Part shown: one piece after another, positions 1,557 through 60,002 of the stretch
How the letters are laid out: each line of letters opens with the position of its first letter
How positions within the stretch are numbered: position 1 is the first letter of the stretch
NCBI GenBank assembly: GCA_964016885.1
Contig: OZ024743.1
Span: 315,518,001-315,582,000, forward strand
DNA: 64,000 nucleotides
Reading direction: 5' to 3'
From: Eledone cirrhosa
Taxonomy: Eukaryota
Translations under genes and position numbers: made by a program
The notes under the pieces: generated by a model
Seen by the model: only the letters and a program-made list of their open reading frames with translations
Told to the model about the DNA's origin: nothing
The model's database searches: none

Positions 1557-1749
1557 CCATATATATATATATACACACACATTAATTGGATTAGATGCGT
1601 AGTTGATGCGTAGTTGATCATTTAAGACCGAGAGATATGTTCAAAGCTCGAATGTGATTTTATTATTCACAGTAAGATAGGCATAAGGCAGTTTAATCCA
1701 ATTTATAAATTTCCAGTCATAGGAGTTTTATAACATCACAGAGCATATA

Positions 1750-2000
1750 TAAAATAAATAAATAAACAACCAAGGTTTTATACATTATTTAAATGACTTA
1801 CCCGCATTTCTTTCAAATACAATAATCTTTTTATTGAAACCTTCAGAATCATTAAATAATAGGCATTACATGTATTAGTCAATGATTCTGAAGATTTCAA
1901 TAAAAAGGATTAAAATATGACTTCCTTCTGTATTTGAAAGAAACGCGTGTACATCAATTAAGTAATGTATTACACCTTGGTTATTTATTTATTCTTCATG
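1750..2000. mobile_element. Fold-back pseudo-LTR remnant with HHR-like motif in each arm (+1881-1960, -1791-1853)
   Basis: Imperfect inverted repeat centred ~1868. Two-arm consensus is AATGATT CTGAAG(A/G) TTTCAA...TTGAAA GAAA CGCGTG TA AGTCATT. Confidence 0.6.
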
Positions 2001-2521
2001 TAGACTCGTGTCTGTGGGTCTACGTGTTAACATATATCTGAGGAGCTTCCGATTTCAGAGTCAGGTTCGATCATTAATAGATCGTTCCTCGAGCTGATCG
2101 ACAGTGTAACAAATGTAATATGTAATTAAATATGTATATGATGCAACACTGATTCTTTGTTCCCCTTATATATTAATATTGTTGATATTCTGGTCCCCAA
2201 AAGCATAGAGTGCCATCGGCACACCGCCCACGAACGCAATTAATTTTCAGCTTTAATTTCTATATGTATATATATATCTATATCTATATATATATATATA
2301 TAAATGTATATATATATATATATAAAGTGAAGAATAACATGGTCAACGGTTTCAGATAGCCATTAGATATCCACTTTTCTAAAAAATAAATCATACATAA
2401 AACGCCAGCACCAACAGTTTTGCAAGAGATGTCAACATGAATGGACCTGTTAATTTTATCTATAGATATTTTTCCAATTCCATCCCGCCCGTCCCCTTAA
2501 TCTATCTTGTTTCTCATTCTT

Positions 2522-2556
2522 TCTTCTGGTGAAGGACTAGCGTCCGAAACATTAAG
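2522..2556 (+). ncRNA. Degenerate minimal hammerhead motif
   Basis: TCTT CTGGTGA AGGAC-TAGC-GTCC GAAA CATTAAGA. One core mismatch and an imperfect stem III. Confidence 0.5.
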
Positions 2557-2661
2557 ACCCTCTTCCCGCTATATCAAGCGTTAACCTAATATATACCTTC
2601 CATATACTGTACCGATTGTGTTGTTATTTCTGTTTACCTTTTACATATATATATACATATA

Positions 2662-2740
<79 letters not shown>

Positions 2741-2743
<3 letters not shown>

Positions 2744-3186
2744 TATGTATACGTACATACATATATGTATACAGACGTACAGTAGTATGTATATATATAT
2801 ATATATATATACATACATGCACACATATATACAGTACGTACGGATTTACCGAAAATTTATTATAATGCTCGGTGTGTTTGTAAACAAACATCTCGAATTA
2901 AGCCGTACAGTGTCTAGCAACCATCGTTGCTCATTTGTTCAACCCTGACAAAGGAACGCTGTACTAGTTTCAAGCTTATTAGCTATCGTCAGCAACGTAT
3001 ACCTTCCTGCCAGATGATTGAACGTCTGAAAGTATATACTTTCCTTATGCATATTAACGGCTGAGCAGCTTAATTTGCATATCGAGTGAGTTAGTCGGCG
3101 GGGTTACCGAAAACGATAAACGGAAAAAATGAAACGAAATTTTTCATTTCTCACTCTTAGTACGGCTGTTACTTAAATATAAGTAT
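2741..3186 (-). mobile_element. ~465-bp retrozyme-like non-autonomous element (family B), HHR at 2956-2998 (-)
   Basis: Homologous to 13178-13749, 16770-17137 and 55545-55925. Minus strand has CTGACGA TAGCT-AATA-AGCTT GAAA CTAG TA. Confidence 0.8.
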
Positions 3187-3223
3187 TCAAGTCATTAGAA
3201 ATATACTTCACTGCTTTACGATC

Positions 3224-3363
3224 ATTGCTTTTGACAACAGCTGGTGATATGCATGAAAGTAAATATTTTCCTTATCTGATATTTTGTAACTAACCTTACA
3301 TAGATCGATAACGAAGTATGGTCACGATGTATTATCATCACCTAGAAACGATCGTAAAGCAGT
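3224..3363 (+). ncRNA. Hammerhead candidate, U3-A8 core with long stem II (family C), inside a short fold-back at 3185-3389
   Basis: ATTGCTT | TTGACAA | ...GGTGAT...ATCACC.. | GAAA | CGATCG | TA | AAGCAGT. Confidence 0.55.
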
Positions 3364-4031
3364 GAAGTGTATTACTAATGACTTGAATTTTTATTTCATT
3401 GTTTTAACTTATATCATGACTCTGTTTTCCTTTTAATGTGTTATTGTTTTCCGGGATTTATTTTAAGCTACACCATTTTCAACATATGGATTACATTGAG
3501 TTCTTCATGCAGACTGGACCCCACAACTTACCGTGGATATCTCTGTGTATATATATATATATATTATACTCGCATATAATTTTATTTTATTTAGAATTAA
3601 CGTTTACTGAGCTACTTCTGTTTCAATTCTGTTTCATTCAAGGATGAAATCATTTGAAATTACTTTCTGGTGATTCCTCCGACCTGTGAAAGTGAATGAA
3701 CTCTGGGTGATGCACTCAGTACCATACTTTAATTGAGATTCCCTTTCATTTTTACCAGAACACTCACACAGTTATAGTCCAGCCAAATTGCTCAATGGAT
3801 GTGTATCTATATCATAAAACATTTTTTTAATATACGCAATGCGTGTGAGGATATATGTACGTGTATTTATGAATGTATAAATTTATATATGTACACACAC
3901 ATTTGTTTACAGTGCATGTGTGTAAACTCAAAATATATAAACATGGAACCGAAAATGTATATTTAGCCATGCATATTTAAACTGCAATGTTTATACATAT
4001 GCATATATATATATATATGTACACACACACA

Positions 4032-5563
<1,532 letters not shown>

Positions 5564-5577
5564 TATATATTTATATA

Positions 5578-6393
5578 TACAAATATAAATTAGCGAGAAT
5601 CGTATTTCAGCTCAGGAATTAACGAAAATCAACGTCCGATATGTGTGGCAAGCGCTCGATGATTCATGTGAATCAGAGCTACAACATACGTTAAGGGCCA
5701 AACACACTGAGATGATGGTTAAACAGATCATTCGCACAGCCAAAACAAACGACCAAGTAATTCGGGTCAAACAATAAAAATATATGTGTTGATAATTTAC
5801 CCGGACCCTGGACTGGTGGTAAAATCCAGTATTTGGTTTCTGCGACTCCAAAATCAGGTACTGTCCGCCTACATAAAGAATGTTGGGCTTCTGGTAAGAT
5901 GATTGAACAAGGAAGAAGTGTTATCAACGGGTTTTTGCCCCAAAATGCTATACATAAGTGTGGCTATTGCTGACCCCACGTGGAGTTCAGCAAGGGAGGC
6001 AACACCTATAATAGGCGAATGATTCAGTTGTGTATAATATTGCGAGAATGCAAAATATCACAAATCGAATAAAGCTCTCGACAGAATGGTTAAATATAAC
6101 AAAGCTATTCAACAGTCAATAGAAGCGACTAAAAAAATCAGTAAAATTAACTGCTCAATAATCTGGAGATTAATACAAATATAAATTAGCGAGAATCGTA
6201 TTTCAGCTCAGGAATTAACGAAAATCAACGTCCGATATGTATGGCAAGCGCTCGATGATTCATGTGAATCAGAGCTACAACATACGTTAAGGGCCAAATA
6301 CACTGAGATGATGGTTAAACAGATAATCCGCACAGCCAAAACAAACGACCAAGTAATTCGGGTCAAACAATAAAAATATGTGTTGATAATTTA
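5578..6393. repeat. ~596-bp unit present as a ~1.4-mer tandem between (TA)n tracts
   Basis: 5578-5800 is repeated at 6174-6393 nearly identically. Confidence 0.85.
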
Positions 6394-17171: not shown

Positions 17172-19935
17172 AAAAATTAGGACACCGACGCCAGAGCTCA
17201 AGCCGTTTCGACGGCTATTTCTGGACTAAATTAGAATTTTTAGCCTAGTGAATAAATAGCCGAACTTTTCAAGGGGGTACTTCCTTATATGGGAAGATTG
17301 TAGTTGTCAAGAGGATTGGTGAAAATTTGTTGCAAACACAAATAAGTCTTATCGTGGCATTTGGTGGGAGGTGGGGGTGGCTGAACTTGCCTGTAGAACA
17401 ATAGGGGAGTGACAGGAGCGGTCAAGCGTTGAAAGTGATATGTATACAGCAGATTCTGAGGATAGAGTATGAAGTGGAGGAGGGAGGTTATGGAATAGGT
17501 CAATCTAATGAGGGTAGGGGACAATAAAAGATAATAGAACGAAATAAAAAAATATATAAAATTAGATAGTGAGAAATGAATAAAAAAAATCACAATGCTA
17601 TCTTACAATTACAGGTTAATAAGTTGAGAAAAAACTAGTAGAAAAAACTAGTAGAAATTGAGTCAGAACTGATACAGAATTAAAAGGATTTTAACACGTC
17701 TGCTATAAGTAGTTAGTAAAACGTATTCAACGAATACTATCTTAAGATTACAGGGGTGGGGGAACTGATGCTACAGAGGCCCGATGGGCTGCATCAGGAT
17801 AGGCGAAGGGGAAAAGCAGACGAGGAAGAAAATAGGGGTGGAAGGAAGTGATAGGATGAGACAGGGGGAAGAAGAAGACAAAGAGGAAAAGAAAAGAAAA
17901 GAGATACATCTACCTAAGTAAGCTGGAGTTTCCCTAACTTATTCGGCAAGTAGGGGGGTATCAGCCCTTGTCTACGGGTCGTTATGGGGTTTGAGGGCGA
18001 GGTAAGTCCTACGCAATCTGTGTTTGCATGTGGTTACCAGTTCCTCTTTCCTGTTTAGGAGTTGGTCATTTGAAAACAGCATTTGTAATGTTTCCTCAGA
18101 GCATAATTTACACGGACGGCGTCCTCCCGTGTAAGAGTTAGATTTGGACAGTAAGCTCCAAGTGATATTGTCGGTTATCTTGAAGGTCCCAGATGTGGCC
18201 CGAATGTGTAGTGGCATGTCGCTCGATCGGGTTTCGGAAAGTATGTCGGTGTTGGTAGAGCCGGGTCTTGAAGTCACACGCGGTTAATCCTATATAAGCT
18301 TTGTTGGACGTGTCCGTCCTCACGTTACACTGGTAGATCACGTTACGTTCTCGGAATTTGTTGTTGAGGGGGCACGTAGATCTATCAGGGCAGTTTCACC
18401 TCCTGGTCGGCTGTCCACTGATGGTTATTTCTTCCATAGGGGTTGAGTTTTTTTGTTGTTTGAGGAGACGACGTTTTGTGCGAAGTTAGGTGTGGTGCTG
18501 TAGGAGAGTTTGGTGGTGTTTTTGTTGATTATGTTGTGGTAGCAGTGTTGTAGTGGAAAGTGTTTTTCGAGGAGTCTAAAGAAGATTTTCCCGATAGATG
18601 TTGCCACCTCGGTATTATGGGGAGGATTGAACCACGTTACGTTGCGTGAGCGGCGGTGTCGCCTGGTGGATCCGCTAAGGGAAGCTGGATAAAAGGTTAT
18701 TTCCTCCCGGAAGCCACTCCGCTTGAGGGCCTGATTGTAATGAGCCGCGTGTTTGTCTAATATCTGCTCATTAGCGGACAAACGAGATATGCGGAGGGAG
18801 ATATTTTTAACCAGGTTATTGGTGATGTGTCTAGGATGGTTAGAGCGGCAGTGGATGTAGTGCAGGTTGTTGTTTGGTTTCCTGTATGGGTAGTACAGAT
18901 CATTTTCGAGGTTACGGGTAACGTCCAGGAAATTGACTTGGGTTAGGGACGTTTGTAGGGTGATTTTAAATCCTCAGTCCCGGAAGAAGTTGCTTAGTTG
19001 TTTACGGACCCGGTCTGTACCACTGGCGTTGTACCCTTTGAGGGTGAGGAGCCCATCATCCCGGTACAATCCACCGCCGAATGCAGGAAACATTTCGGTG
19101 AGTTTAAATAGTAGGAATAATCCTATAAGATCTGTGACCTCGGCCGAATCCGTCGCGCCCATACTGACGTCGAAGGGGGAGTCGGGAGCTCTCTTCATCC
19201 ACTGGGAGTTGTCGAAAAGTCTCGTCTGCTTTTCCCCCTCGCTTACCCCGATGCAGCCCATCGGGCCTCTGTAGCATCAGTTCCCCCACCCCTGTAATCT
19301 TCAGATAGAATTAGACGAATACGTTTTGCTAACTACTTATAGCAGACGTGTTAAAACCCCTTTAATTCTGTATCAGTTCTGGTACTACTCAATTTCTACT
19401 AGTTTTTTCTATTCTCAACTTATTAACCTGTAATTGTAAGATAGCATTGTGATTTTTTTTATTCATTGCTCACTATCTAATTTTATATATTTTTTTATTT
19501 CGTACTATTATCTTTTATTGTCTCCTACTCTCATTCAATTTACCTATTCTATATCCTCCCTCCTCCACTTCATACTCTATCCACAGAATCTGCTGTAAAC
19601 ATATCACTTTCAACGCTTGACCGGTCCTGTCACTCCCCTATTGTTCTACAGACAAGTTCAGCCACCCCCACCTCCTACCAAATGCCACGATAAGACTTAT
19701 TTGTGTTTGCAACAAATTTTCACCAATCCTCTTGACAACTACAATCTTCCCATAAAAGGAAGTACCCCCCTTGAAAAGTTCGGCTATTTATTCACCAGGC
19801 TAAAAATTCTAATTTAGTCCAGAAATAGCCGTCGAAACTGCTTCAGCTCTGCAGTCGGGATCATACTTTTTCCTATTTCCCACTCTACTACCCTAAGTAT
19901 TGAGTACTTTGGTGCGTTATGGTCTATCTGGTTAC
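17170..19935 (-). mobile_element. 5'-truncated PLE (Hydra-clade-like): RT C-half plus GIY-YIG (17972-19220), 3' pLTR (17170-17824), inverted pLTR (19221-19935)
   Basis: GGGLYRDDGLL, WFNPPH, IYQCNV...YIGLTACDFKTRLYQHRHTF, CKLCSEE...LLNRKEELVTTCKH. ~650-bp inverted repeats with (TA)n on both sides. HHRs at -17182-17279 and +19766-19860. Confidence 0.92.
19766..19860 (+). ncRNA. Family A hammerhead, U3-A8 core
   Basis: CCC TTGAAAA GTTCGGCTATTT...AAATAGCCGTC GAAA CTGC-TTCAGCTCT-GCAG TC GGG. Stem III differs from the 697-790 copy but remains paired. Confidence 0.75.
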
Positions 19936-27969: not shown

Positions 27970-27970
<1 letters not shown>

Positions 27971-29254
27971 CTTAAGGTTTGTTGGTTCACCACTGGATAG
28001 AACTGGTCATTCCGTATGGTCAATCCTGGTGTAATATTGTGAAGAGTACTCAACGCAGTGCAGTTCACCCATCTTCGTTTGTGTAGTTGGTGGTGCGAAT
28101 ACGGAGTTAATTATAAATGAAATAAGAGGAGGCTGGACTGGTGTAAATCCTTGAAAGGTTTATTATACTATGATCATTTCCATGACTGGGTTCCATATGA
28201 ATCCGGTGATATCATCAGGTATTGGAATATAACAAAGGAATATGTAAAAAGCCATGCGTCCGAAATACCATGGGTCCGAGAAACCAGAGACAGAGAGGGC
28301 GGCTGACCAACTAGCTTCACAGCCAGCCGCCCTCAAAGTGTTGGCAACCGAAAACTACCAGTGAATATCTGGTAAGGGGGCGCAGGCCTATCATGTACTA
28401 CCACCACTTCGTCAAAGAAAAAGGGGAAGAAAGAAAGAAAGGGAGAAGAAGTGTAGTGTAAGGGTCAAACTACATTCATGTTAGAAAATGCCGCGAAAAA
28501 AATGCTACCCAAAGAATCTATAGTGGGTGTCTGTATGGTCTAATGTGTGAACCGAAGATTGAAACGCTAAACTTATGTTGCGAGTTATAGGATGAAATAA
28601 TTTAAATTAAAAATATTATATTGCAAAATGGTAAATTGAAAAATATTTAACTCTTATCGAGATAAATTTAAAAAAACAACAAAAACAATTGTTCATATAA
28701 GACTCTCTCCGTAAGTTCGTTAAATAAATAAATCTCGCTACCTCTATTTTTGAATTTACCATTTTGCAATATAATATTTTTAATTTAATTTATTTCATCC
28801 TATAACTCCAATCTTCGGTTCACACATTAGACCATACAGACACCCACTATAGATTCTTTGGGTGGCATTTTTTTCGCAGCATTTTCTAACATGAATGTAG
28901 TTTGACCCTTACACTACACTTCTTCTCCCTTTCTTTCTTTCTTCCCCTTCTTCTTTGACGGAGTGGTGGTAGTAAATGATAAGCCTGCGCCCCCTTACCA
29001 GATATTCACTGGTAGTTTTCGGTTGCCAACACTTTGAGGGCGGCTGGCTGTGAAGCTAGTTGGTCAGCCGCTCTCTCTGTCTCTGGTTTCTTGGACCCAT
29101 GGTTTTTCGGACGCATGGCTTTTTACATATTCCTTTGTTATATTCCAATACCTGATGATATCACCGGATTCATATGGAACCCAGTCATGGAAATGATCAT
29201 AGTATAATAAACCTTTCAAGGATTTACACCAGTCCAGCCTCCTGTTATTTCATT

Positions 29255-29255
<1 letters not shown>
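27970..29255. mobile_element. Family I fold-back element (~510-bp arms) with HHRs at -28165-28222 and +29148-29205
   Basis: ATAC CTGATGA TATCACCGGATTCA..TGGAACCCAGTCATG GAAA TGATCA TA GTAT. Arms 28115-28645 and 28748-29255 are near-perfect inverted copies. Confidence 0.85.
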
Positions 29256-29346
<91 letters not shown>

Positions 29347-37184: not shown

Positions 37185-40100
37185 AAAACAATAAAATAAA
37201 TTTACGATATATTAAAATACATTAAAATATGCATATAACGTCACAGAGATATATAAAAAAGAGGGGAAGGTACATGTATTCGTGTGTTATACCAGACATG
37301 GGGAGTATGATATGCACACTTAGGTCTGTGTACGGAACAAACAATAAGTGTTCCAAAGTGGAACACGTGGAGAGTATGTATTCACGATTGAAGAGGTACA
37401 CATTCATGGAGGCGCGTAGCCTGGTCACATTGGAGTATGCCACTGTGGATGAGGTGTGTTGTCCTATAGGTGCAGGGTACTTGACTGAACGACCGTAGAA
37501 TCCGGGTCAGCCTGTCCCGGCGCAGGCGATGTTCCTTCCTAAGGTGACGTGTGTAGTCAGGTGTGCATCTTGGGTTATTTTGGTTTACCCCACGGGACAT
37601 ATAATGAAATCAGGGTATGGTGTCTGGTCCCTTAAACCCGTTTCGTCGCTCAGGTCGGTGCGTGCTCCGACGCATACCCTTAGCCTGGGCTTCCCGGAGG
37701 ATTCCATGCGGCGAATGTGCACCTTCTCTGGTGTCTGCAAGTCATGATAATTTCAGATTTCAGGTTGACCGCGTCATCTTTCAGTCTGACTATCTCCATG
37801 GCCTCGTATAGGCATAATCTGCACTTTCTACTTCCAGCCGAGTATGCATTCGCGTTCCGAACGATACTCCAGTCAAGGGCGTACGAGGTGCCTTGGTCTT
37901 TCAGGTCCCACATCAGGTCCGCTAACCTAGTGGAGTGCCTCTTGCATCGGTCCTTGAAGGAGTTCGTGTGGTTATACATCCGCGATTTAAAAGTCGTGGA
38001 TGTTGAGCTGATGTAGGTGCGTTTTATATTTGATTTCTAACCACACATTTGTATACCAAGTCCTTCGTCAGGCATTTTCCCTGTAGGGGGCACTGGATGC
38101 CCGTTCTGCAGTTACATGTTCTGTTGTTACTTCGTTCGCTTCTGACGTCTGGCCCTCTCACGCTTCTCGGGGTGTTGTTCCACCGGCACGGTTATCTCCC
38201 CCACGGAAGTCGTTCCCTCCTGGCGTTGGATTGTATTATCTTTCGCGAGCGTGTCGGCCACCTCGGGGGGCGGGTTGTTATTTGAAGGCCGGTCACCGAA
38301 TGGTCCTCCACGCTCCGATAGACGGTCATTCTGCCGCCGCGGTTGACGGTCGATGTTCCCCATCTTTACCGCGTTGGTTTTAGCCATGTAGTCGGCCATG
38401 CTAGGTGCCGTGGAGAAGGAAACTTCACCGTGTGGCGGTTGAAGATTGTGTGGTATTTGTTCGATGGCGGAAAGCACTCGTCTAACGCTTGGAATAGAAG
38501 ACCTGGCACGTTGCTGCGTACATGCTTGGAGTATGGTGCATTAAACCATGTAACGGCCTTGGATCTAGTCTTGTTCTTTCGTGTGTGTGTGTGTAGTCTT
38601 GTGAGTGTGCCCTGGGCCTGATGCCCATCTCTGGTTTTGCCCGTCCATAATTACGTATCCTGTGTTGTCTCTATTTGTGTTCCTACTGCGAGCGTCAAGG
38701 TTATGTCTTTCACTTACTAAGGTATTTCGTTCTATATTGTTGGCTCTACTGCTAATCACTTTAAATTTAAGAGGTGCTGCTGTCTGTGCTATATTACTAC
38801 TACCAGGCCGGGTGTTCTCTCTAGCGGGTGCCATTGCCGTACTTGTCGTTGCTCTGTCCCTAGTCCCTGTTACCGCGGAGTATGCAGTGTGCGTGGTGCC
38901 AGGCCCATGCCTACTTGTACTAGGTGGTCTAGCTCCCAAGGGTGCCTTTCTCCTTCCTACTGTCGGTCGTGTGTCATTAATTCTTTCTACGTTAGGCACA
39001 AGGCCAGCAATAATCCAGTGTATTACTGGTACTTTATTTTACCCACCCCGTAAAGATGAAAGGCAAAGTTAACCTCGGCGGGATTTGAACTCAGAATGGC
39101 AAGGGCCGTAACTCTATACGTCAAAGCTTAACGTCCGACCTTCTACCGATACTGCCACGGCTGAGTTACTACTCGTGTTCTTAGAGACTGCTACCGGGTC
39201 ATTTCTCCTACCTATGGAAGTGCCCTCGCTATTGTCGTATCCGCATGCCTCGGCGCATGGCTCTTCCCTGTCTGGGGTATACACTATGGTGTCTGTGTAA
39301 ACGGCCCTGTGCAGTACCTCATTATAATATTTGACGTGCTGTTTAAATACGTCTGCGTTGGCCGACAGGGTGGATACGCTTTTGGATACCCCTTTAACTA
39401 TAGCTTCTATGAGTGACCTGGCGTGATTCGATTGCCTGTTCACATATTGCAGGTTCTCATTGGGCTTGTGATAAGGTCGGTGGATGCCAGTATTCATTTC
39501 CAGGGTGACGTCCAGGAAATTCACCGTCTTAGTGCTAGGATCTATCGTCATGGATACGCCGTGCTGCTTAAAAAAATGCGATATGCGCTTCCTCATACGC
39601 TCCATCTGACTGGGGTTTAGGGAACGGAAGGTGAAAAGTGCGTCGTCTCTATGTATTCCTCCGCCAATCCCCGGGATCTCCTCTGCTAACCTATGGAGGA
39701 GATAGATCCCCACCAGATCGGTCACCTGCGCCGAGTCGCTCGACCCCATGGTGATATCGAAACTGTCGGGTCTGTCCCCCCTCTCCCATAACTTGTCTTC
39801 TGGCTGCTACTATTAGGTTAGTCTCCTCCCTAGTGAGGTTGGACCTGGCCATGGCGCTCATGAGGGCCTTGTTCACTAATACAGGAGATGCTGACCTGTA
39901 GTAATTATCTATGTCTAATTGAATAAAATATAGCTGCTGCTTGTTACCTACTAACGAGAACCAGTCAATTACCTCCTTAGTGGAGGTCCATAATCTAAGA
40001 CTAGTTTTGTTTCGGTAGTATCGGTGTACCGGTAGTATCCTGTCTATGATATTCTTGCTGGTCCTACCTATGTCAGATTTTGAGGGTGCTATTAACCTAA

Positions 40101-40905
40101 CCGGTAGGTTAGTTCTAAAGTCTAATTTATGGTCCTTAATAGATATCCGAGGTTTTCTAGGTACATATAATTCGGTCCTATCATCTAATCCTAACCGTCA
40201 TTATTTTTATGGTCGTGGCGTTAATATTATCTAAGTTTGTCTGTCCTGTGGTCCTGTATTTTTTCCTAATCTCTTTCCCGATGCAGTCGTTGTATGTAAA
40301 ACAGTCAAGCTTGTATAGATTACCAGTTTTGTCCGAGGGCACAAGTAAATCCGGGCATTCTTCCATGCATTTGATTGTGGACCTGAGACTCCTGAGGTAT
40401 TTCGTACGTCGTGAACTTGATGTTACGGACGATGTTGATGATACGATTCTCAAATTCTTCCAGCTGTGCGTTATGTGGCGGGTGTCGTCTAGATCTAAAT
40501 ATCCGCTTTAGGCGGTCCTGGAGGGTATCGGGTGAGTTTTGTTGTCCTTCTGTCGTGGTGAAATGCGCGCCATCTCATGTGGCGTATCAGTAAGCCCATG
40601 TAGGTGCTGTCAGACGGGATCTGGATGTCCTTTAGGGAGGAGAGTAATTGAATTTTTCCATGGGGAATCGCTTAAGCGCTCTACTTGTGGGGGAGCGTAG
40701 TATATATGAGAGTTTAATGGTAGCTATGATGCTTCCATAGGCGGTATTCCAGTTGAGCACTGTGTTCTTATAAAACGAAAAATCAGTGATGCATCTGGAC
40801 TCACTTTATTGTGTGTTATAATTGTTTCGCCGGCAGATAGCTCGAGACATGATCATTGTATGGATCTGTCTGATTCTAGATCTGCAGGTTATTCGGACGC
40901 ATGCA
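37185..40905 (-). mobile_element. Near-full-length but decayed Hydra-clade-like PLE (RT plus GIY-YIG), with upstream HHR-like motif at 40810-40901
   Basis: RHMRWRAHF, LLVPSDKTGNLYKL, DITMGSSDSAQVTDLVGIYLL, GGGIHRDDAL, VNFLDVTL, WFNAPYS, CNCRTGIQCPLQGKC, CRLCLYEAMEI...NLKSEIIMTCRH. Multiple frameshifts. Confidence 0.9.
38977..39160 (-). mobile_element. SINE inserted inside the PLE ORF linker
   Basis: Full-length match to the SINE copies at 51878-52065 and 54421-54600. It introduces stops in the PLE frame. Confidence 0.85.
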
Positions 40906-41584: not shown

Positions 41585-43160
41585 GGAGATAGATAGATAG
41601 ATAGATACATAGATATGTTTCTTTTATTTGCCACTAGGGCATCAAAAGTGGGACAAGTACAAAGGGGGGAGTTTACACAAAAAGGCGTCCTCAATAAGGA
41701 GGAGGCAATAACAAAATATAAAAATAAAATAAGATATAACAAAAAATAAAATTTATAACAAAATCCTCAATAGAGAGGAGGCGCCTTGGGGGGTCGCACA
41801 CACCCCCGAAAAAAGTGTGCAACCCTTCTCCTCAGGAGCACAGAGAAGGGGTGCTCCCTTGGTCTTTCATCTTCCTCACCTATAGTCTGATGTAGAGCGA
41901 AGGCCCATTCACACGGGCCATTCTCGCCACATTCACCCATCTTTCATAGAAACGGCTGGGGTGCAGCACCTCTCTCTCCATCCTGATCCTTCTTCCGAAA
42001 TGATATCGGAAGAAACGGACCAGTTGTTGGCCAGAGAGAAAGGTGCCTGACCTCAGTCCTTTCAGACGCGTCCACCATACAACCTCTTTCGCCATGGCTA
42101 TTACGCACAGAAACACCGCCTCTGCTTCATCTTTGAAGGGGGGAGGCGCCTTGATCATTACAATAGACTCGGTGGTCAACCGGATCGGTCCCACCCTTGA
42201 CAGCAGTTGTTCGACATAGCCCCACAGATCGGCTACGCCCGAGCAGTGTACCAATGCGTGTGCAACGGTTTCCTCGTCGCACACGCATCTGGGACAGATC
42301 TTTTTGGCGGGGTCCCTACCCGGGCGCCCGTGTCTGTAGAGCCTTTCTCGAACGGGTAAAGCTCCTCGGTAGCACTGCCAGGCCAGGGACTTCTGGAAGT
42401 TGTCCATAGGTCCCGGGCTGAATGTCCTACCGAACAGGCCGGCCAGTTCGTCCTCCTCCATGTCTAGGGCTTCTCCGAGGGCGTCGTCGCACCTGCTGCG
42501 TACCAGCCCTCTATAGAATGTTGCGGTGGAGTCTCCACTGATAACCGGATCCGCCTGCCAGAGGGCGGTGAGCGCCTGGGCACACTCAGTGTGCCAGGCG
42601 CCCAGTTTTCTCGGTCTTTGCTTGACCCACGATTGCAGCTCGGTGAGTGAGACGAGTCTGGGAAAGGTTCGTCTCACAAACGAGGCCCACACCGGTTGTC
42701 CGGTGAGGAATACGTAGAGGTGCCGAAGCCTTAATGCGTCTTTACGCATCATTAGCCACGGCATCCCCAGCCCTCCTTTCGAAGGGTGTTGACAGCAGAT
42801 GGATCTCCTCACCATAGGAGCCCGCCTCTTCCAAAGGAATTGGAAGAGCGCGCGCTCCATCTTGGTGAGGGTTTCCCTTGGGCAGGGCACTACGGTCAGG
42901 CGGTAGTAGATGACGGACGCTATGTAGGTGTTCGCCACCTCCGCCCGACCTTTCAGGGATAGTTTGCAACTGCCCCACTTCTGGGTCAGTGCAAACACCC
43001 TGTTCGTAACCTCCGCCCAGTTTTTCTCCACCTGGAGGTCCGGTCCGAACCAGACCCCGAGCAACTTCACCGGGCCCTCCGTCCAGCGTCCGACGCCGCC
43101 ATCGGAGGGCATCGGTCTGCCCCTCCACGTGCCGAGTTGCAAACCGATCGACTTTAGATA
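41585..43160 (-). mobile_element. 5'-truncated Tx1/L1-like non-LTR retrotransposon (RT C-terminus plus zf-RVT-like Cys/His motif; ORF ~41880-43155) with (TCTA)n tail
   Basis: VKLLGVWFG...LSLKGRAEVANTYIAS...KGGLGMP...CPRCVCDEETVAHALVHC. The 3' UTR ends AAATAAAAGAAAC + (ATCT)n. Confidence 0.85.
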
Positions 43161-43442
43161 CATAGATAGATAGATAGATAGATATGTTTCTTTTATTTGC
43201 CACCAGGGCATCAAAGGTGGGACAAGTACAAAGGGGGGAGTTTACACAAAAAGGCGTCCTCAATAAGGAGGAGGCAATAACAAAATATAAAAATAAAATA
43301 AAATATAACAAAAAATAAAATTTATAACAAAATCCTCAATAGAGAGAAGGCGCCTTGGGGGGTCGCACACACCCCCGAAAAAAGTGTGCAACCCTTCTCC
43401 TCAGGAGCACAGAGAGGGAGTGCTCCCTCGTTCCTTCCTCTT
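43161..43442 (-). mobile_element. Second, 3'-UTR-only copy of the same Tx1-like element, in tandem
   Basis: Near-identical to 41590-41875 including the (TAGA)n tail. Confidence 0.85.
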
Positions 43443-44558
43443 TTCCTCATTCAGTCTGCCTGAAGGAAGATTACTACAGTGTGAAAATCCTCTTAGAAGC
43501 TCTGCAATACAACCAGTACAATTGGGCAATCATTGGAGACTTCAAGATGGTGGCTTTCCTGCTTGGACTCCGAGGTGGCTTTATCAAATTCCAATGCTTC
43601 CTCTGCCTTTGGGACAGCAGAGCCACCTCTCACCACTACAAAAGTAATAACTGGGAGCAGCGAACAGAATTTGTAGTTTGGGACCCGGAACGTCATGCTG
43701 GAGCCACTAGTTGATCCCAGGATTGTGCTCATGCCGCTACTGCACATTAAGTTGGAGTTGATGAAGCAGTTTGTGAAAGCTCTCAACCAAGAATCAGTCG
43801 CTTTTAAGTACCTTCTTGAGTTCCTCCCCAAACTATCTGAAGCCAAAATCAAAGGTGGAATTTCTGTTGGACCCCAGATAAAGAAGGTGTTTGAGTCTAC
43901 CGAGTTCTCCAATAAGCTCAATAGAATTGAGAGAAAAGCATGGAACTGTTTCAAGGCAGTTGTTAAGGGCTTCTTGGGCAACTACAGAGCTGAAAACTAC
44001 CAGCAACTGGTGCAGGATCTGATAAAGGCTTTTGGCGCCATGGGATGCAGGATGTCGCTTAAACTCCATATGCTGGACGCTCACCTGGAAATATTCAAGG
44101 ACAATATGGGCGCCTACTCCGAAGAACAAGGCGAACGATTCCACCAAAATGTGAAAGAGATAGAGCGGAGGTACCAGGGCCACTACAATGAAAAAATGAT
44201 GGGGGACTATATCTGGGGGCTAGTGCGGGAATGCAACCTGGACTACAACCGTAAATCCAGGAAATCCAGTCATTTCTGAAGTGTATAAGTTGAATTATAA
44301 GTGTTATTTGTTTTTACTTGTTTGCTTTTGATAAGCTTGTGTAATAAAATAAATATATACTCTGTTGATTTAATTATATGAACTGATAAATTTCTTTTAA
44401 ATGTGTTTTTTTTTTTAAATATGAAAATTGCGAAATATCAAACTCCTGACCACAAACCTAAACTTCTGATTAAATAATAGTGTGTTTTATAATAATGGGA
44501 TATAACAAACCATGAAATGACACTTAGAACCGGGGAACAAAAAATCTGTTACACGGTA
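43443..44558 (+). mobile_element. Chapaev3 (CMC) DNA transposon 3' part, frameshifted transposase
   Basis: WAIIGDFKMVAFLLGLRGGFIKFQCFLCLWDSRA, PLLHIKLELMKQFVKAL, SEEQGERFHQ...ERRYQG...MMGDYIWGL. Ends gttacacgg, similar to Chapaev3 termini. Confidence 0.85.
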
Positions 44559-44559
44559 T

Positions 44560-46035
44560 AATGTACTCTCGCTACGTTGATGATATAAACATCGTAGTAA
44601 AAACACCCCCACTAGAGAACAGTCAGGAATTAGAGAAAATCACCATGGAAAGCATCCAGCAAATAGCTAACTCCATCTACCAGAGTATTAGAGTTACTAT
44701 AGACTACCCAAGCAAACATCCCAACCATCGATTACCTGTACTAGACACAGAGCTCTGGTTAGAGACCATTAATAACAAAAAACAAATCCTCCATTCCCAT
44801 TATGCCAAACCCATGACTTCCAAATATCTGATCCACCGAAACTCAGCTGTTTTGGATCACACCAAAATCAACATACTGATGGCGGATTTAGTACGGGTGA
44901 TGAGAAACGTGTCCCGCATGTGCAACCCCAAAGAACTAGAGAGACACATACAACACTTCATCCACCGTATGCAGTTCTCTGGTTACAAAATCAGAGAGAT
45001 AAAATAATCAGAGTATATAGAGAAGCCAGAACCAAATGGGAAAAATGGTAAATAATGATACAAATGGGACCTTCCCCTTTATAGGAGCAAATGTTGGAAT
45101 AGAATAGAAAGAACTAGGAATAAGGTTAATAGAATAAACTCATGGTATGATAGCAATAAATACCAGAGAGTAATGTTCATCGATACAACGCCTAGAGATG
45201 AATTAGCTTACAAATTTAGAAGGGCCTAGATAAACTTAAACTAAATATTAATATAGTAGAAAGACCAGGTACCTCCATAAAAACACTTATTAGTAATACA
45301 TACTCTTTTCGAAGACCTCCCTGTATAGATAAGAAATGCATAATCTGTAAACTAAGCCCCCATATTAACTGTAAAACTAATAACATAGTATATAGTATAA
45401 GATGTACTGAAGGACAATGTAAAGATAAGAATATAGTGTACATAGGTGAGGCAGCTCGTAGTATAGGAGAACGATTAAATGAACACTGGCGAGAGCTTCA
45501 AGATAGAAAAGATTCAGCAGTACTCCACCAATATGCTAAAATAGAACATAAGGGCAAATTAGAGAACATAGAAATAAAAATAAAATCTACACACAGAAAA
45601 GACGCAATGTTTAGACAAATCATAGAGGCAATAAACATAAATGAACTCCAACCAAAATTAAATAGAAAACATGAATGGAATAGCAACATCACAACTTACA
45701 ATTAAGGACAAAATGAAAACACACACACACATAGAACAAACAACCAACCAGTAACATGTAAATAAACAATAAATAAACAAATAAAAACACACACAGACAC
45801 CGGGATGTAACACATGCGCAAACTAAGCAAACAACACACACAAAAACAAGATGGCGTAGAACAGAACAAAGGAGAGGAACAAAAACAAAGAAAAGAATCC
45901 CCAGTCACTGATGAGGTCACAGAATGTGTGACGAAAGAACTTTGACAATATATGAACAACCGTCCGGTTGTGGAACCAACCAACCGGAAATTTATAAATT
46001 CTTAAATTTATAAATTTAATTTATAATAAATTGGA
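44560..46035 (+). mobile_element. 5'-truncated PLE of a different clade (Nematis/Neptune-like): YVDD RT end, thumb, GIY-YIG, 3' pLTR
   Basis: RYVDDI...LPVLDTELW...HYAKPM...QFSGY; NCKTNNIVYSIRC..CKDKNIVYIGEAARSIGERLNEH...RQIIEAININELQPKLNRKHEW. Confidence 0.85.
45904..45946 (+). ncRNA. Minimal type I hammerhead (family F), canonical core
   Basis: GTCA CTGATGA G GTCACA-GAATG-TGTGAC GAAA GAAC TT TGAC. Confidence 0.8.
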
Positions 46036-47206: not shown

Positions 47207-49532
47207 AGATCAAAAGATGGTTAAAAGAGTTCCAAGTATTTTATTATGCGCATTTCAAAAACAAATATCATCATGGGATGATATTTGCGTTCTCATCAGA
47301 TAAAATAGGGAGACATGATATGAAACTTAAAAAACACTTGAGAGCAGTGTATTGTTAAATCAACATATGAAAAATAAAGTAAGATAGATATATGAGATTG
47401 GGAAAAACAGGAGGGGGGGGGGTAAGAAAAGGTAAGGAAGAGGAAGAAAGAAAATAAAGTATGACGGGGGAGGAGTATAAGAAGGAAGGATGAGAGAGGA
47501 GGTGAAATGAGTGATAGAGAGAGAGAAATAGCCTTTACAACTGAGAAAACATTGTCTCACAGAGAGAAATTAAAAATCCGTTGAAAGATAATAGATAATT
47601 TTAAAAGATTTTGAAATTAAAAGTTAATGAGGTTTATGAATGGTGATGTTTATGATTAAAGAAAAAGGAATTAAGAATAGTATTTATTTAAGGGTTTAAT
47701 AATATGTGCGAAAAAAATAATTTATTAATATGTATTATTAAAATAAAAATATTAAGGATATAATGTGAAAGAAGGAGAGATGGAATGAATTATGAACTTA
47801 GAGGAATTAGTTAGGGTTTAAGTTTGTTTTTTATGTTTTGTAATATGTAAAAGTAAATAATAGGTTTAATACGATTACCGAAGGAGAGAAGAAAGAAGAA
47901 AATTTAAGGAGGAAAACATATCTAACGTCAAAAAGTATATATGTTTACAAAATGTTCTAATGGTAATATTATTATATATTTAAAAAAATATAGTTTCTCT
48001 GGCCAACAATATAAGGAAAAATGGAAAATGCTATAGTGAGTAATAATATGAATTAAGAAGTAATTGAGAAGTAAAAGTTACAGATTAACGATTAGAAATT
48101 AAAAAAGAAAAAAGGAAGAAAGGAAAAAGGATAAAAAGAAGAAAGATGGGGGACCTCTAACGACATAGATTGAGTAAATTGTATAATATAATATACAGAA
48201 ATAAGGTAGAAAGATGGGTATATTTGTAAAAGATATAAAAGCCTTTGAGAAAAGAAGATTTTAAACTAATTAGGTATTGAGATATTAGCTGTATACTTTA
48301 TGGAAAGTTCTATGGGATTTATGCAAGCAGAGCAAAAATAAATCCGTACGTCTATTTATTATAGAATTAAAATTAGATATAATGGTAAATTTCTCGGCTA
48401 AGCAGAGATTACATGTTCTGGATAGGGAAGAATTTCGCTAAGGAAAGGCGTTGCAAACCTTCCTCCAAGAGATGTTATAGTTAATATTTTTGTCTTTTAA
48501 GGACCATATGAGTTCCGAGAGTGCCGTGTTAGTTCTTTTAAGTTGGTATTTAAAAGACGATTTCTAATCATAAAATCTTGCTTTAAAGGAAGTGGAAGTG
48601 GAACCGAAATAGGTAAAGGAATTAGTACCAGTTATAATCTTACATTCATACACTAAGTTTTTATCAAGACATTGTTTATTAAGAGGACATTTAGTTCTAA
48701 CAGGGCAATTACAATTACGATTAGAGACATTAACAGAGTTATTAACAAGTGACCTAGTATTATTTATAGAATGAATTGGATTGGAGAAGTTATTTACGAT
48801 AGGAACTATAGTTTCCTGATTTAGATTGGTATTATGAACATTCGTCGTATTTAAATTTACTGAATCTAGCCTAGAGTTAACATTGACGTTGGGTTTACTA
48901 TTGCTATTATTATGACGCTCGGTTGGGTGGATATAATTTATTATTTAATATTTTATTATTGTGTTTAGAGATAATGTTAGAGATGTTGGAAGTGGGGGAA
49001 TAAGAGAATTTGATTGTATGTTTGTTAAAGATCTGGCTATAGATATACGAGGGAGGGAAGCATTTATCTAAGGCCCTAAAGAATAGTTTAGGAATATTAC
49101 TAGTAATAGATAGAGAAAAAGGAGCATTATACCAAATCATATTTTTGTATCTAGGTCTTTTATTTAAGTTATTGGAATGTTCATAATTAACAATTTTACT
49201 ATAAGTCCTTCGATGATTGGTTTCTTTACTGTATTTAAATTTATCAGGATAACCGGCTTTGGAAAGCGCATTATTATAGTAATTGGCATTAGCGTCGAAG
49301 ATAACTTTATTAGAGGATAGATTTGAGATTCTTTTTTCAATATTACTGACTATAGTATTTTTAACGTTAGTGGGGTGGTTAGATTTAAAATTAACATACT
49401 TTAGATTCTCATTGCCTTTATGGTAAGGGTAATATAGGCCAGTGTCAAGATTAAGGGATATATCCAGGAAGTTAGCTAGTTTGACGTTGTTATCAAATTC
49501 AATTTTAAGGTTATGCTGCTTATATAGATCAA

Positions 49533-49535
<3 letters not shown>
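47200..49535 (-). mobile_element. 5'-truncated Hydra-clade-like PLE (thumb plus GIY-YIG, 48240-49530) with family D HHR at 47237-47307 (-)
   Basis: ANFLDISLNLDTGLYYPYHK...SNHP, IWYNAPFS, CNCPVRTKCPLNKQCLDKNLVYECKI...YFGSTSTSFKARF. TATTTTAT CTGATGA..CAAATATCATC-CCAT-GATGATATTTG..GAAA TGCGCA TA ATAAAATA. (TA)n on both sides. Confidence 0.9.
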
Positions 49536-49596
<61 letters not shown>

Positions 49597-49941
49597 TGTA
49601 CCCCCGGCATTCGCCATCCCGGTTATTCGCGGAATTTCCCTTAGAATTTAACTAATAATTGTTCGTAGAAACCACCGTATATTTACGGAATCGTAAATAT
49701 CTTCTGCGATTTTTTATGGCTTTTTCGTGGTAATATATATATTTTTTAAAGATAAATTATATAATAACATTATACCGTATTTGCCGGTCTATTGGACTGC
49801 CCTTCACATATATTTTTACGTTTATAGGATTTTTATGGATCACATCCAATATTAGCAATTTTTCACTCTTCGCGGGTGTTCTAGGAACGTAATCCTCGCG
49901 AATATCTTGGGAGAACTGTATATATATATCTATCTATATAT

Positions 49942-58939: not shown

Positions 58940-58945
<6 letters not shown>

Positions 58946-59940
58946 AATAACAGGAGGTGAGGTTGGACTGGTGTAAATCCTTGAAAGGTTTATTATACAA
59001 TGATCATTTCAATGACCGGGTTCAGTATGAATCCGGTGATATCATCAGGTATTCGAAATATAACAAATAAAATCCATGAGGCTGAAAATCAGAGACAAGA
59101 GGACGACCGACTATTTAGCAGCTTCTACCTCAGTCGGTCGCCCTCGAGTGTTGATTATTAAGTCTACCTATGACCATCTGGTGAGGGGGCGTAAGCTTAT
59201 AATGTACTACTACCTCACCATCAAAGAGAAAAGGTCAGTTTTCAGGGTAGGATATAGAGTAAAGATTAAGCCCTTGTTTAGCAGTCAATAATCATCGACG
59301 ACTGCAGAGCCCGGCCAGCCCTTCCTTAACCACGTGTCAGCCGTTCCGAGTTATATCGTCTAGCGAAAGAAATGGAAATTAATTTTTCCGAGCACTCCAG
59401 GAATGTAACTGTTTTAGGCGTCGGGTGTGTTAGTGGGAAGTCCACCATCGCCGTCAGGCCATCGTCTATACCAAACGAATACTATTAATTCACTTAGGAG
59501 TGGGATTTATTTACGTGCCAGTAGAGGGAGGCATGATACAGCTAATAGTTATGATTATAGCTAGAAATTTAAAGGTACTATTTGGCGGTTAAAACCGGCG
59601 GCGCGATGGGCCCCGGGGCGAAGCAGCCGTTCCGAGTAATTTCGTTTACCGAAAGAAGGGGAAATTTGTTTTTCCAAGCACTCAGGGAAGGCTTACTCAC
59701 CCGGGCGCCCGGCGCGCAGCCGGGAAAGCCGTCACATCTGTCGGTCATTGAAATGATCATAGTATAATAAACCTTTCAAGGATTTACACCAGTCCATCCT
59801 CCTGTTATTTTATAATAATTAACTCCGTACTCGCACGACTAATTACACAAACGAAGACGGGTGAGTTGTATTACGTTGAGTACTCTCCATATTACATCAA
59901 GATTGACCAGTTCTATCCAGTGGTGAACCAACTAACCTAA

Positions 59941-59942
<2 letters not shown>
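58940..59942 (-). mobile_element. Family I relative with HHR at 58995-59052 (-), a GC-rich internal insert and an inverted terminal arm
   Basis: Termini match 27970-28225 and 29185-29255. The internal 59230-59740 segment differs from the 28.4-28.7 kb copy. Confidence 0.8.

Positions 59943-60002
<60 letters not shown>

Follow-up and report, generated by a model that had tools for sequence, protein, structure and literature searches.

The question raised by this locus is what a GC-rich motif with the appearance of a folded RNA, present twice inside a hammerhead-bearing repeat, contributes to the element that carries it. The window analysed here is a stretch of 64,000 nucleotides from Eledone cirrhosa, and the duplication noticed in it by the preliminary description holds: the motifs at 59338-59402 and 59624-59689 are 83% identical across 66 nt (E 5e-14), and within them a head bounded by GAGT and ACTC can be delimited at 59348-59397 and 59634-59683. 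When the 3.0 Gb genome was scanned, a tight pattern of the motif had 1,477 exact matches as compared to 0 for the reversed control, and a loose pattern had 2,086 matches as compared to 18 in the control, hence the motif is far more abundant than expected by chance. The first 30 of the 1,477 tight-pattern matches were all found within the Penelope-like element described below (30/30).

Judged by its sequence, the carrier is a non-autonomous Penelope-like element of ~1.9-2.7 kb, devoid of an ORF and present in thousands of copies, an identity that follows from its hammerhead, 5' truncation, inverted pieces, two fixed ends and (TA)n insertion sites. The hammerhead, of the minimal type I with a palindromic stem III as defined in PMC6765202, lies in the pseudo-LTR on the minus strand of the window, and its pattern has 5,413 exact matches genome-wide (control, 0). 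The copies are mostly 5'-truncated and often joined to an inverted piece, partial tandems occur, and the insertions sit in (TA)n, i.e. in AT-rich targets; two fixed 3' ends lie ~60 and ~200 nt beyond the hammerhead (unit positions ~143 and ~1). Truncation at the 5' side, inverted pieces, fixed ends and AT-rich sites are described as marks of Penelope-like insertion (PMC8557442, PMC6765202, PMC11167929). The repeat is dispersed, with 2,041 candidates at first look and, among the matches listed, 41 at 86-100% identity, and its tandem copies give a unit length of 1,926-2,730 nt (1,545 in one deleted copy). The longest frame in the unit has 126 aa and is of low complexity, comparison with 10 protein fragments detected no similarity to Penelope proteins within the element in 30 loci, and a lysine-rich frame on the plus strand was rejected as coding, since it has a stop in copy 1 and a frameshift in the sister subfamily.

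As far as the cited texts describe them, non-LTR retrozymes and non-autonomous Penelope-like elements share with this carrier the type I hammerhead, the lack of an ORF, the partial tandems and the 5' truncation, as well as the inverted truncated copy, the two fixed 3' ends and the insertion into microsatellites (PMC7229834, PMC8557442, 10.64898/2026.07.22.740005). On the other hand, its unit of 1.9-2.7 kb contrasts with the ~200-400 nt monomers of metazoan retrozymes (PMC7229834), its hammerhead is minimal, with a palindromic stem III as in Penelope-like elements, its optional 3' tail extends over 140 nt rather than the 30-40 nt described, and it contains a conserved internal module in two copies, of which these sources, as far as consulted, make no mention. 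The carrier is a longer variant of the known Penelope-like/retrozyme elements, and the module itself is absent from Rfam 15.

The copy in the window, together with its sister near 28 kb, comprises the following features:

58942..59236, minus strand: 3' part of the pseudo-LTR, which stops within (TA)n at the shorter and more frequent of the two 3' ends (unit positions 142-457)
58995..59052, minus strand: minimal type I hammerhead (stem I AUAC/GUAU, CUGAUGA, stem II, GAAA, palindromic stem III)
59099..59145, minus strand: pseudo-LTR hairpin of 15 bp, which other subfamilies also possess in altered sequence
59236..59237: breakpoint of a deletion of ~290 bp found in the window copy alone; the sequence lost is in part homologous to 28401-28645 of the sister
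59288..59457, minus strand: hammerhead-proximal module, an irregular stem with the Y head at 59348-59397, P3 of only 3 bp (88.5 bits)
59580..59740, minus strand: distal module, a GC-rich stem whose base holds a U-rich internal loop, with the Y head at 59634-59683 (98.3 bits)
59738..59945, plus strand: inverted, 5'-truncated second copy, comprising the hammerhead's 3' half (without CUGAUGA) and the long tail of 200 nt, and terminating in (TA)n
27970..28645, minus strand: sister subfamily copy, ending before the first module
28674..29258, plus strand: inverted arm of the sister copy, likewise ending before the first module

The hammerhead is predicted to cut between 58999 and 58998. A second candidate cis-signal is the hairpin at 59099-59145, situated ~50-100 nt upstream of the hammerhead. 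In the distal head, P1 pairs GAGUG with UACUC, P2 pairs GGAAA with UUUCC, and a pyrimidine linker leads to P3, in which UUUCG and CGAAA enclose the loop GUAAA.

What had been read as an insert turns out to be a normal internal part of the element. Its relatives have ~290 bp extra between 59236 and 59237, lost from the window copy, and ~830 bp further past 59741, where the window copy is 5'-truncated and joined at 59741/59742, via a short shared word, to the inverted hammerhead-and-tail piece. The sister was said to have unrelated internal sequence, which is wrong: it is a diverged copy from a subfamily ~67-70% identical to the window type, and its two arms break off at 672 and 742 in the coordinates of a full-length member, where the first head lies at 834. 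The strand also has to be reversed, as the hammerhead lies on the minus strand of the window and a transcript would therefore carry the reverse complement of the motif as originally drawn. The long GC helix reported beneath copy 2 does stand out in folding (z -3.7 on the plus and -3.8 on the minus strand, equalled by 0 of 200 shuffles), and copy 1 likewise stands on a long stem. The short motifs folded alone are weak, with z of -0.9 and -1.5 on the plus strand and +0.3 and -2.8 on the minus strand.

Loci chosen independently of the motif mostly contain it. Among 30 loci of the sister subfamily fetched without the motif, 23 carry it, and the longer copies carry both modules; six of the remaining seven stop before the first head and one stops inside it. 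Loci selected by the 5' region of the element alone hold the module within 1.5 kb in 28 cases out of 30, the two exceptions being one with an internal deletion and one that breaks off. Wherever module and hammerhead were both mapped outside inverted arms, they have the same relative orientation. The spacing between module copies is variable (280-510 bp), and subfamilies reshuffle the surrounding blocks yet retain two modules; in one of them the proximal module was lost and two distal ones, 89-94% identical, come from a recent ~500-bp duplication, and another holds three. This retention through rearrangement suggests selection for two copies, an argument weakened by the fact that non-module stretches of the elements are also duplicated. 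The best 150 matches listed in a genome-wide search with the module model are all strong. The distal stem of several subfamilies (L019, L027, L029, L151, L078) is marked by 17-19 extra nt in its 3' arm, a segment that in our view loosely resembles a tRNA T-arm word and is too weakly conserved to call. Among the matches listed, the module also recurs every ~125-170 kb at nine places in G000:C3:89.18-90.35 Mb, which suggests a segmental tandem array of large size.

In comparisons between copies, the 50-nt head is kept about as faithfully as the hammerhead of the element. Between the window type and the sister type, the identity of the head is 0.94 and that of the flanking arms 0.58-0.75. In nine long copies, eight of which were found via the motif and in which unaligned bases were counted as mismatches, the two heads reach 0.94 and 0.88 and the hammerhead 0.92, as compared to 0.56 for the rest. 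In one independent sample (three runs, of unspecified kind), the contig depth is 17,054 and 35,556 on the two heads versus 1,580-6,333 in the neighbouring bins. A head variant encountered in the contigs of this sample proved to be a single deleted copy.

On the hammerhead strand, the module is predicted to form an irregular stem of ~170 nt capped by a three-way junction, the Y head. The 155 distinct copies include 134 that fall into 11 groups of at least three, and the Y head, as read by eye, is present in the MFE structure of all 11 group majorities on this strand versus 6 of 11 on the other. In 24 real copies, 93.2% of the 526 cells of the head and adjoining stem are paired, a value that none of 500 shuffles attained (the rows are related, so that shuffle counts are not probabilities), and slid-register controls gave 33-55%. 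Substitutions in the head, read on the hammerhead strand, yield G.U and A.C in a ratio of 40:11; for the distal stem the ratio is 43:16, with both-side changes at several pairs, in a tally of 12 of the 16 rows from which four with truncated or foreign 5' arms were dropped. The P3 pair that closes the GUAAA loop is G-C in 29, G.U in 49, A-U in 21 and A.C in 1 of the first 100 of 1,421 matches (counted by eye), where the A-U form belongs mostly to one subfamily and both underlying changes are of the CpG type. P1 and P2 exhibit no both-side changes, so their pairing rests on invariance, and the ~60-bp flanking stem is retained in differing sequence across subfamilies. In two proximal groups, including that of the window, the opposite strand gives P3 the higher probability (0.42 and 0.79 versus 0.08 and 0.19). 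Energy favours the hammerhead strand in 111 of the 155 copies, a bias that is partly compositional, as shuffles lean likewise in 10 of the 11 groups. When a whole unit was folded, for one aged copy, only the distal of the two modules formed, and a sliding fold scan that was not centred on the modules failed to single them out. The hammerhead-strand fold is well supported for the distal module and less so for the proximal one.

Comparison with Rfam 15 gave no match at the gathering score across the 64 kb and none on the modules at E<=10, which covers the SRP Alu domain, rRNA, snRNA, tRNA, IRES and ribozymes. The hammerhead core CUGANGA, taken in any strand order (PMC10085705), is found in none of the 11 group majorities and in 1 and 3 of the 155 copies on the two strands. 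A home-made descriptor of the HDV-like nested double pseudoknot with its catalytic C, which had no positive control, found none in the 11 majorities on either strand, and Rfam gave no such match. The Sm word is absent from the module majorities. Scans with the motif pattern found 0 matches in viral contigs and 0 in prokaryote genomes. The sole metagenome match (L141) lacks the 5' half and is not scored by the module model, and was set aside as due to chance, as were two loose-pattern matches (L142, L143) situated in another repeat. The module is undescribed in those parts of the Penelope, retrozyme and cephalopod-repeat literature that we consulted, and a consensus of the family may already be held in Repbase or Dfam. 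The lack of an Rfam match, the hammerhead-level conservation and the pair-keeping substitutions on one strand support the original designation of the motif as an uncharacterised RNA module; the IRES-like role suggested along with it is unlikely, as the unit has no coding frame, and the RT-recruitment or packaging role named there may hold.

We consider it likely that the module is a structured cis-signal, of one kind or another among those considered here, on the RNA of the hammerhead strand. Our preferred reading, to which we assign a probability of roughly 0.45, is that it may serve as a protein-docking signal that helps the element to reach the Penelope reverse transcriptase of another element. 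The tandem units would be transcribed through, as Penelope biology leads one to expect, and the borrowed enzyme would nick AT-rich DNA and start copying at two fixed sites, at distances of 60 and 200 nt beyond the hammerhead. A start just past the hammerhead would explain the two fixed ends, and the module would then not be the start signal. Instead, the head would be read by a protein, either a host factor or the Penelope protein, with the stem presenting it, as suggested by a head of 50 nt that hardly varies and a stem that may vary as long as pairing is kept. The two copies might increase avidity or match a partner that is a dimer, and the Penelope protein has been modelled as a dimer (PMC11167929). 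The same source describes the minimal template of the purified anole Penelope system as ~170 nt from the hammerhead onward, with copying starting there; this corresponds to the tail of our element and not to the module, which lies 600-1,300 nt upstream. That the sequence following the hammerhead is all the purified enzyme requires (PMC11167929) argues against docking, as do the absence of the module from the sampled coding Penelope families and the existence of shorter retrozymes that are described as mobile without such a domain.

The cognate coding family was sought in 50 GIY-YIG loci or stretches, 30 Neptune-type loci, 40 hammerhead loci (among the matches listed) and 30 loci of the 5' region, and was not found in this sample, which is small relative to >10,000 candidates. 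In 463 kb of sampled coding Penelope loci, the window included, only the element's own copies match the module. One locus (L226:1659-4110; G000:C1:58222249-58226680) contains a stop-free Neptune-type RT/GIY-YIG frame of 474 aa, and a truncated copy of the element joins it 80 nt after its stop, inside the 5' arm of the module. This family is young (its copies are 98-99% identical), and it was rejected as the partner, as the join occurs in 1 of its 30 copies and the others have their own 3' end; the join is possibly a template switch. Another locus (L225) adjoins a different Penelope family and was likewise set aside. In the window itself, broken Penelope-type RT/GIY-YIG fragments of several families are present at 17266-19776, 37700-40200, 44528-45950 and 47600-49650, of which the one at 17-19 kb lies between inverted arms with no canonical hammerhead there. 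Further minimal hammerhead-like motifs at 2562, 4237, 12297, 16698, 21074, 45904 and 61695, several of them with a palindromic stem III, represent at least three other Penelope-type families. A 453-aa fragment of a frame on the minus strand at 41880-43241 is, as we presume from its motifs, of the L1/Tx1 type.

Alu is a dimer in which the Alu domain is present twice. Its mobilisation needs the 46-nt Alu domain that binds SRP9/14 (10.1101/2024.12.16.628748), and the likeness to our element consists in a structured domain of ~50 nt, present twice, in a non-coding element that borrows the enzyme of another. The differences are that the module has no SRP match in Rfam, its loops AAUAAA and GUAAA cannot pair together, it is internal rather than 5', and it has no known cellular RNA of origin. 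A docking module would be Alu-like in logic and not in structure. The more ambitious claim, that it constitutes a new class of structured RNA capturing the Penelope reverse transcriptase in trans, convergent with Alu and SRP9/14 and the first such internal signal for a telomerase-related retroelement, is in our opinion doubtful. Among the SINEs, the CORE, Deu, V and Ceph domains also form the conserved middle of non-autonomous retroelements, with a role deduced from conservation (PMC5786205). Unlike them, the module is accompanied by Penelope-type ends rather than a tRNA/5S head or B box and was seen here in one genome only, and CCTTGGG, the CORE/Ceph word, is not part of its head.

Alternatively, the module could act in RNA stability or nuclear export, in the manner of an ENE or a transport element and unrelated to enzyme capture, by protecting or exporting an RNA that has neither introns nor a templated poly(A). 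Retroviral transport elements are typically long stems with duplicated protein-binding loops, and all of our structural evidence fits this reading equally well. The distal groups have a U-rich internal loop at the base of their stem, as do retrotransposon ENEs, in which such a loop forms a triplex with an A tract. An ENE has been described to raise both the stability and the mobility of the plant retrotransposon Evade (PMC12501189). However, the U-rich loop has only 3-6 nt per side, is variable, is not evident in the proximal modules, lies ~1 kb from the 3' end and has no templated A tract; conservation is centred on the Y head instead, and Rfam offers no match. We regard this function as unlikely, if reasonable.

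Less probable still is that the motif acts as DNA, with clustered inverted half-sites GGAAA/TTTCC and CGAAA/TTTCG that together would serve as enhancer or promoter for the following tandem unit, and the hairpins arising as a by-product. The invariance of P1 and P2, which do not covary, is what such sites would exhibit, duplication with a spacing as variable as that seen here suits enhancers, and an internal promoter as well as enhancer-like sequences are described for the Penelope of Drosophila (PMC2377424). Unexpected for DNA sites are the strand-asymmetric excess of G.U, the three pairing forms of P3 and the ~60-bp stem maintained in differing sequence, and the Pol III B box, sought on both strands within the module region, is absent from all 11 majorities.

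If the module functioned as RNA or single-stranded DNA on the opposite strand, the one originally drawn, in an antisense transcript or in the cDNA, one could account for a stem that folds on both strands, for the preference of the proximal P3 for that strand in two large groups, and for the 11 cells of the head and 16 of the stem that are G.U only there. The same assumption would leave 49 of the 100 listed distal copies with P3 closed by an A.C mismatch, P3 disappears from the alignment fold of that strand, and the G.U:A.C ratios are against it by ~3:1, which makes it very improbable. The second ribozyme once envisaged is the least tenable option, for although a new self-cleaving RNA would fit the compact multi-stem junction with invariant bases, the 3 of ~26 sister-family ends within 3 nt of the 5' edge of the head and a mild enrichment of break points no more than 33 nt away from that edge (11 among the 47 listed, a total that includes two chance matches), these break points spread from -2 to +31, as fold-back of the nascent cDNA at a long stem predicts, there is no single 5' end among the copies, 115 of the 162 listed copies read at least 250 nt past the head, the hammerhead core and Rfam searches yielded as little as described above, and internal cutting would destroy full-length templates.

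The copying of non-coding hammerhead elements by Penelope enzymes has so far been proposed and not shown, and the module provides a discrete target of 50 nt, conserved at the level of the ribozyme and kept in at least two copies through repeated rearrangement. Should the protein-docking reading be true, it would name the step at which the parasite competes for a telomerase-related enzyme. Should it be a stability or export element, it would be a new one of this kind, from an invertebrate-type genome. On either reading, the module adds an RNA structure that is missing from Rfam 15.
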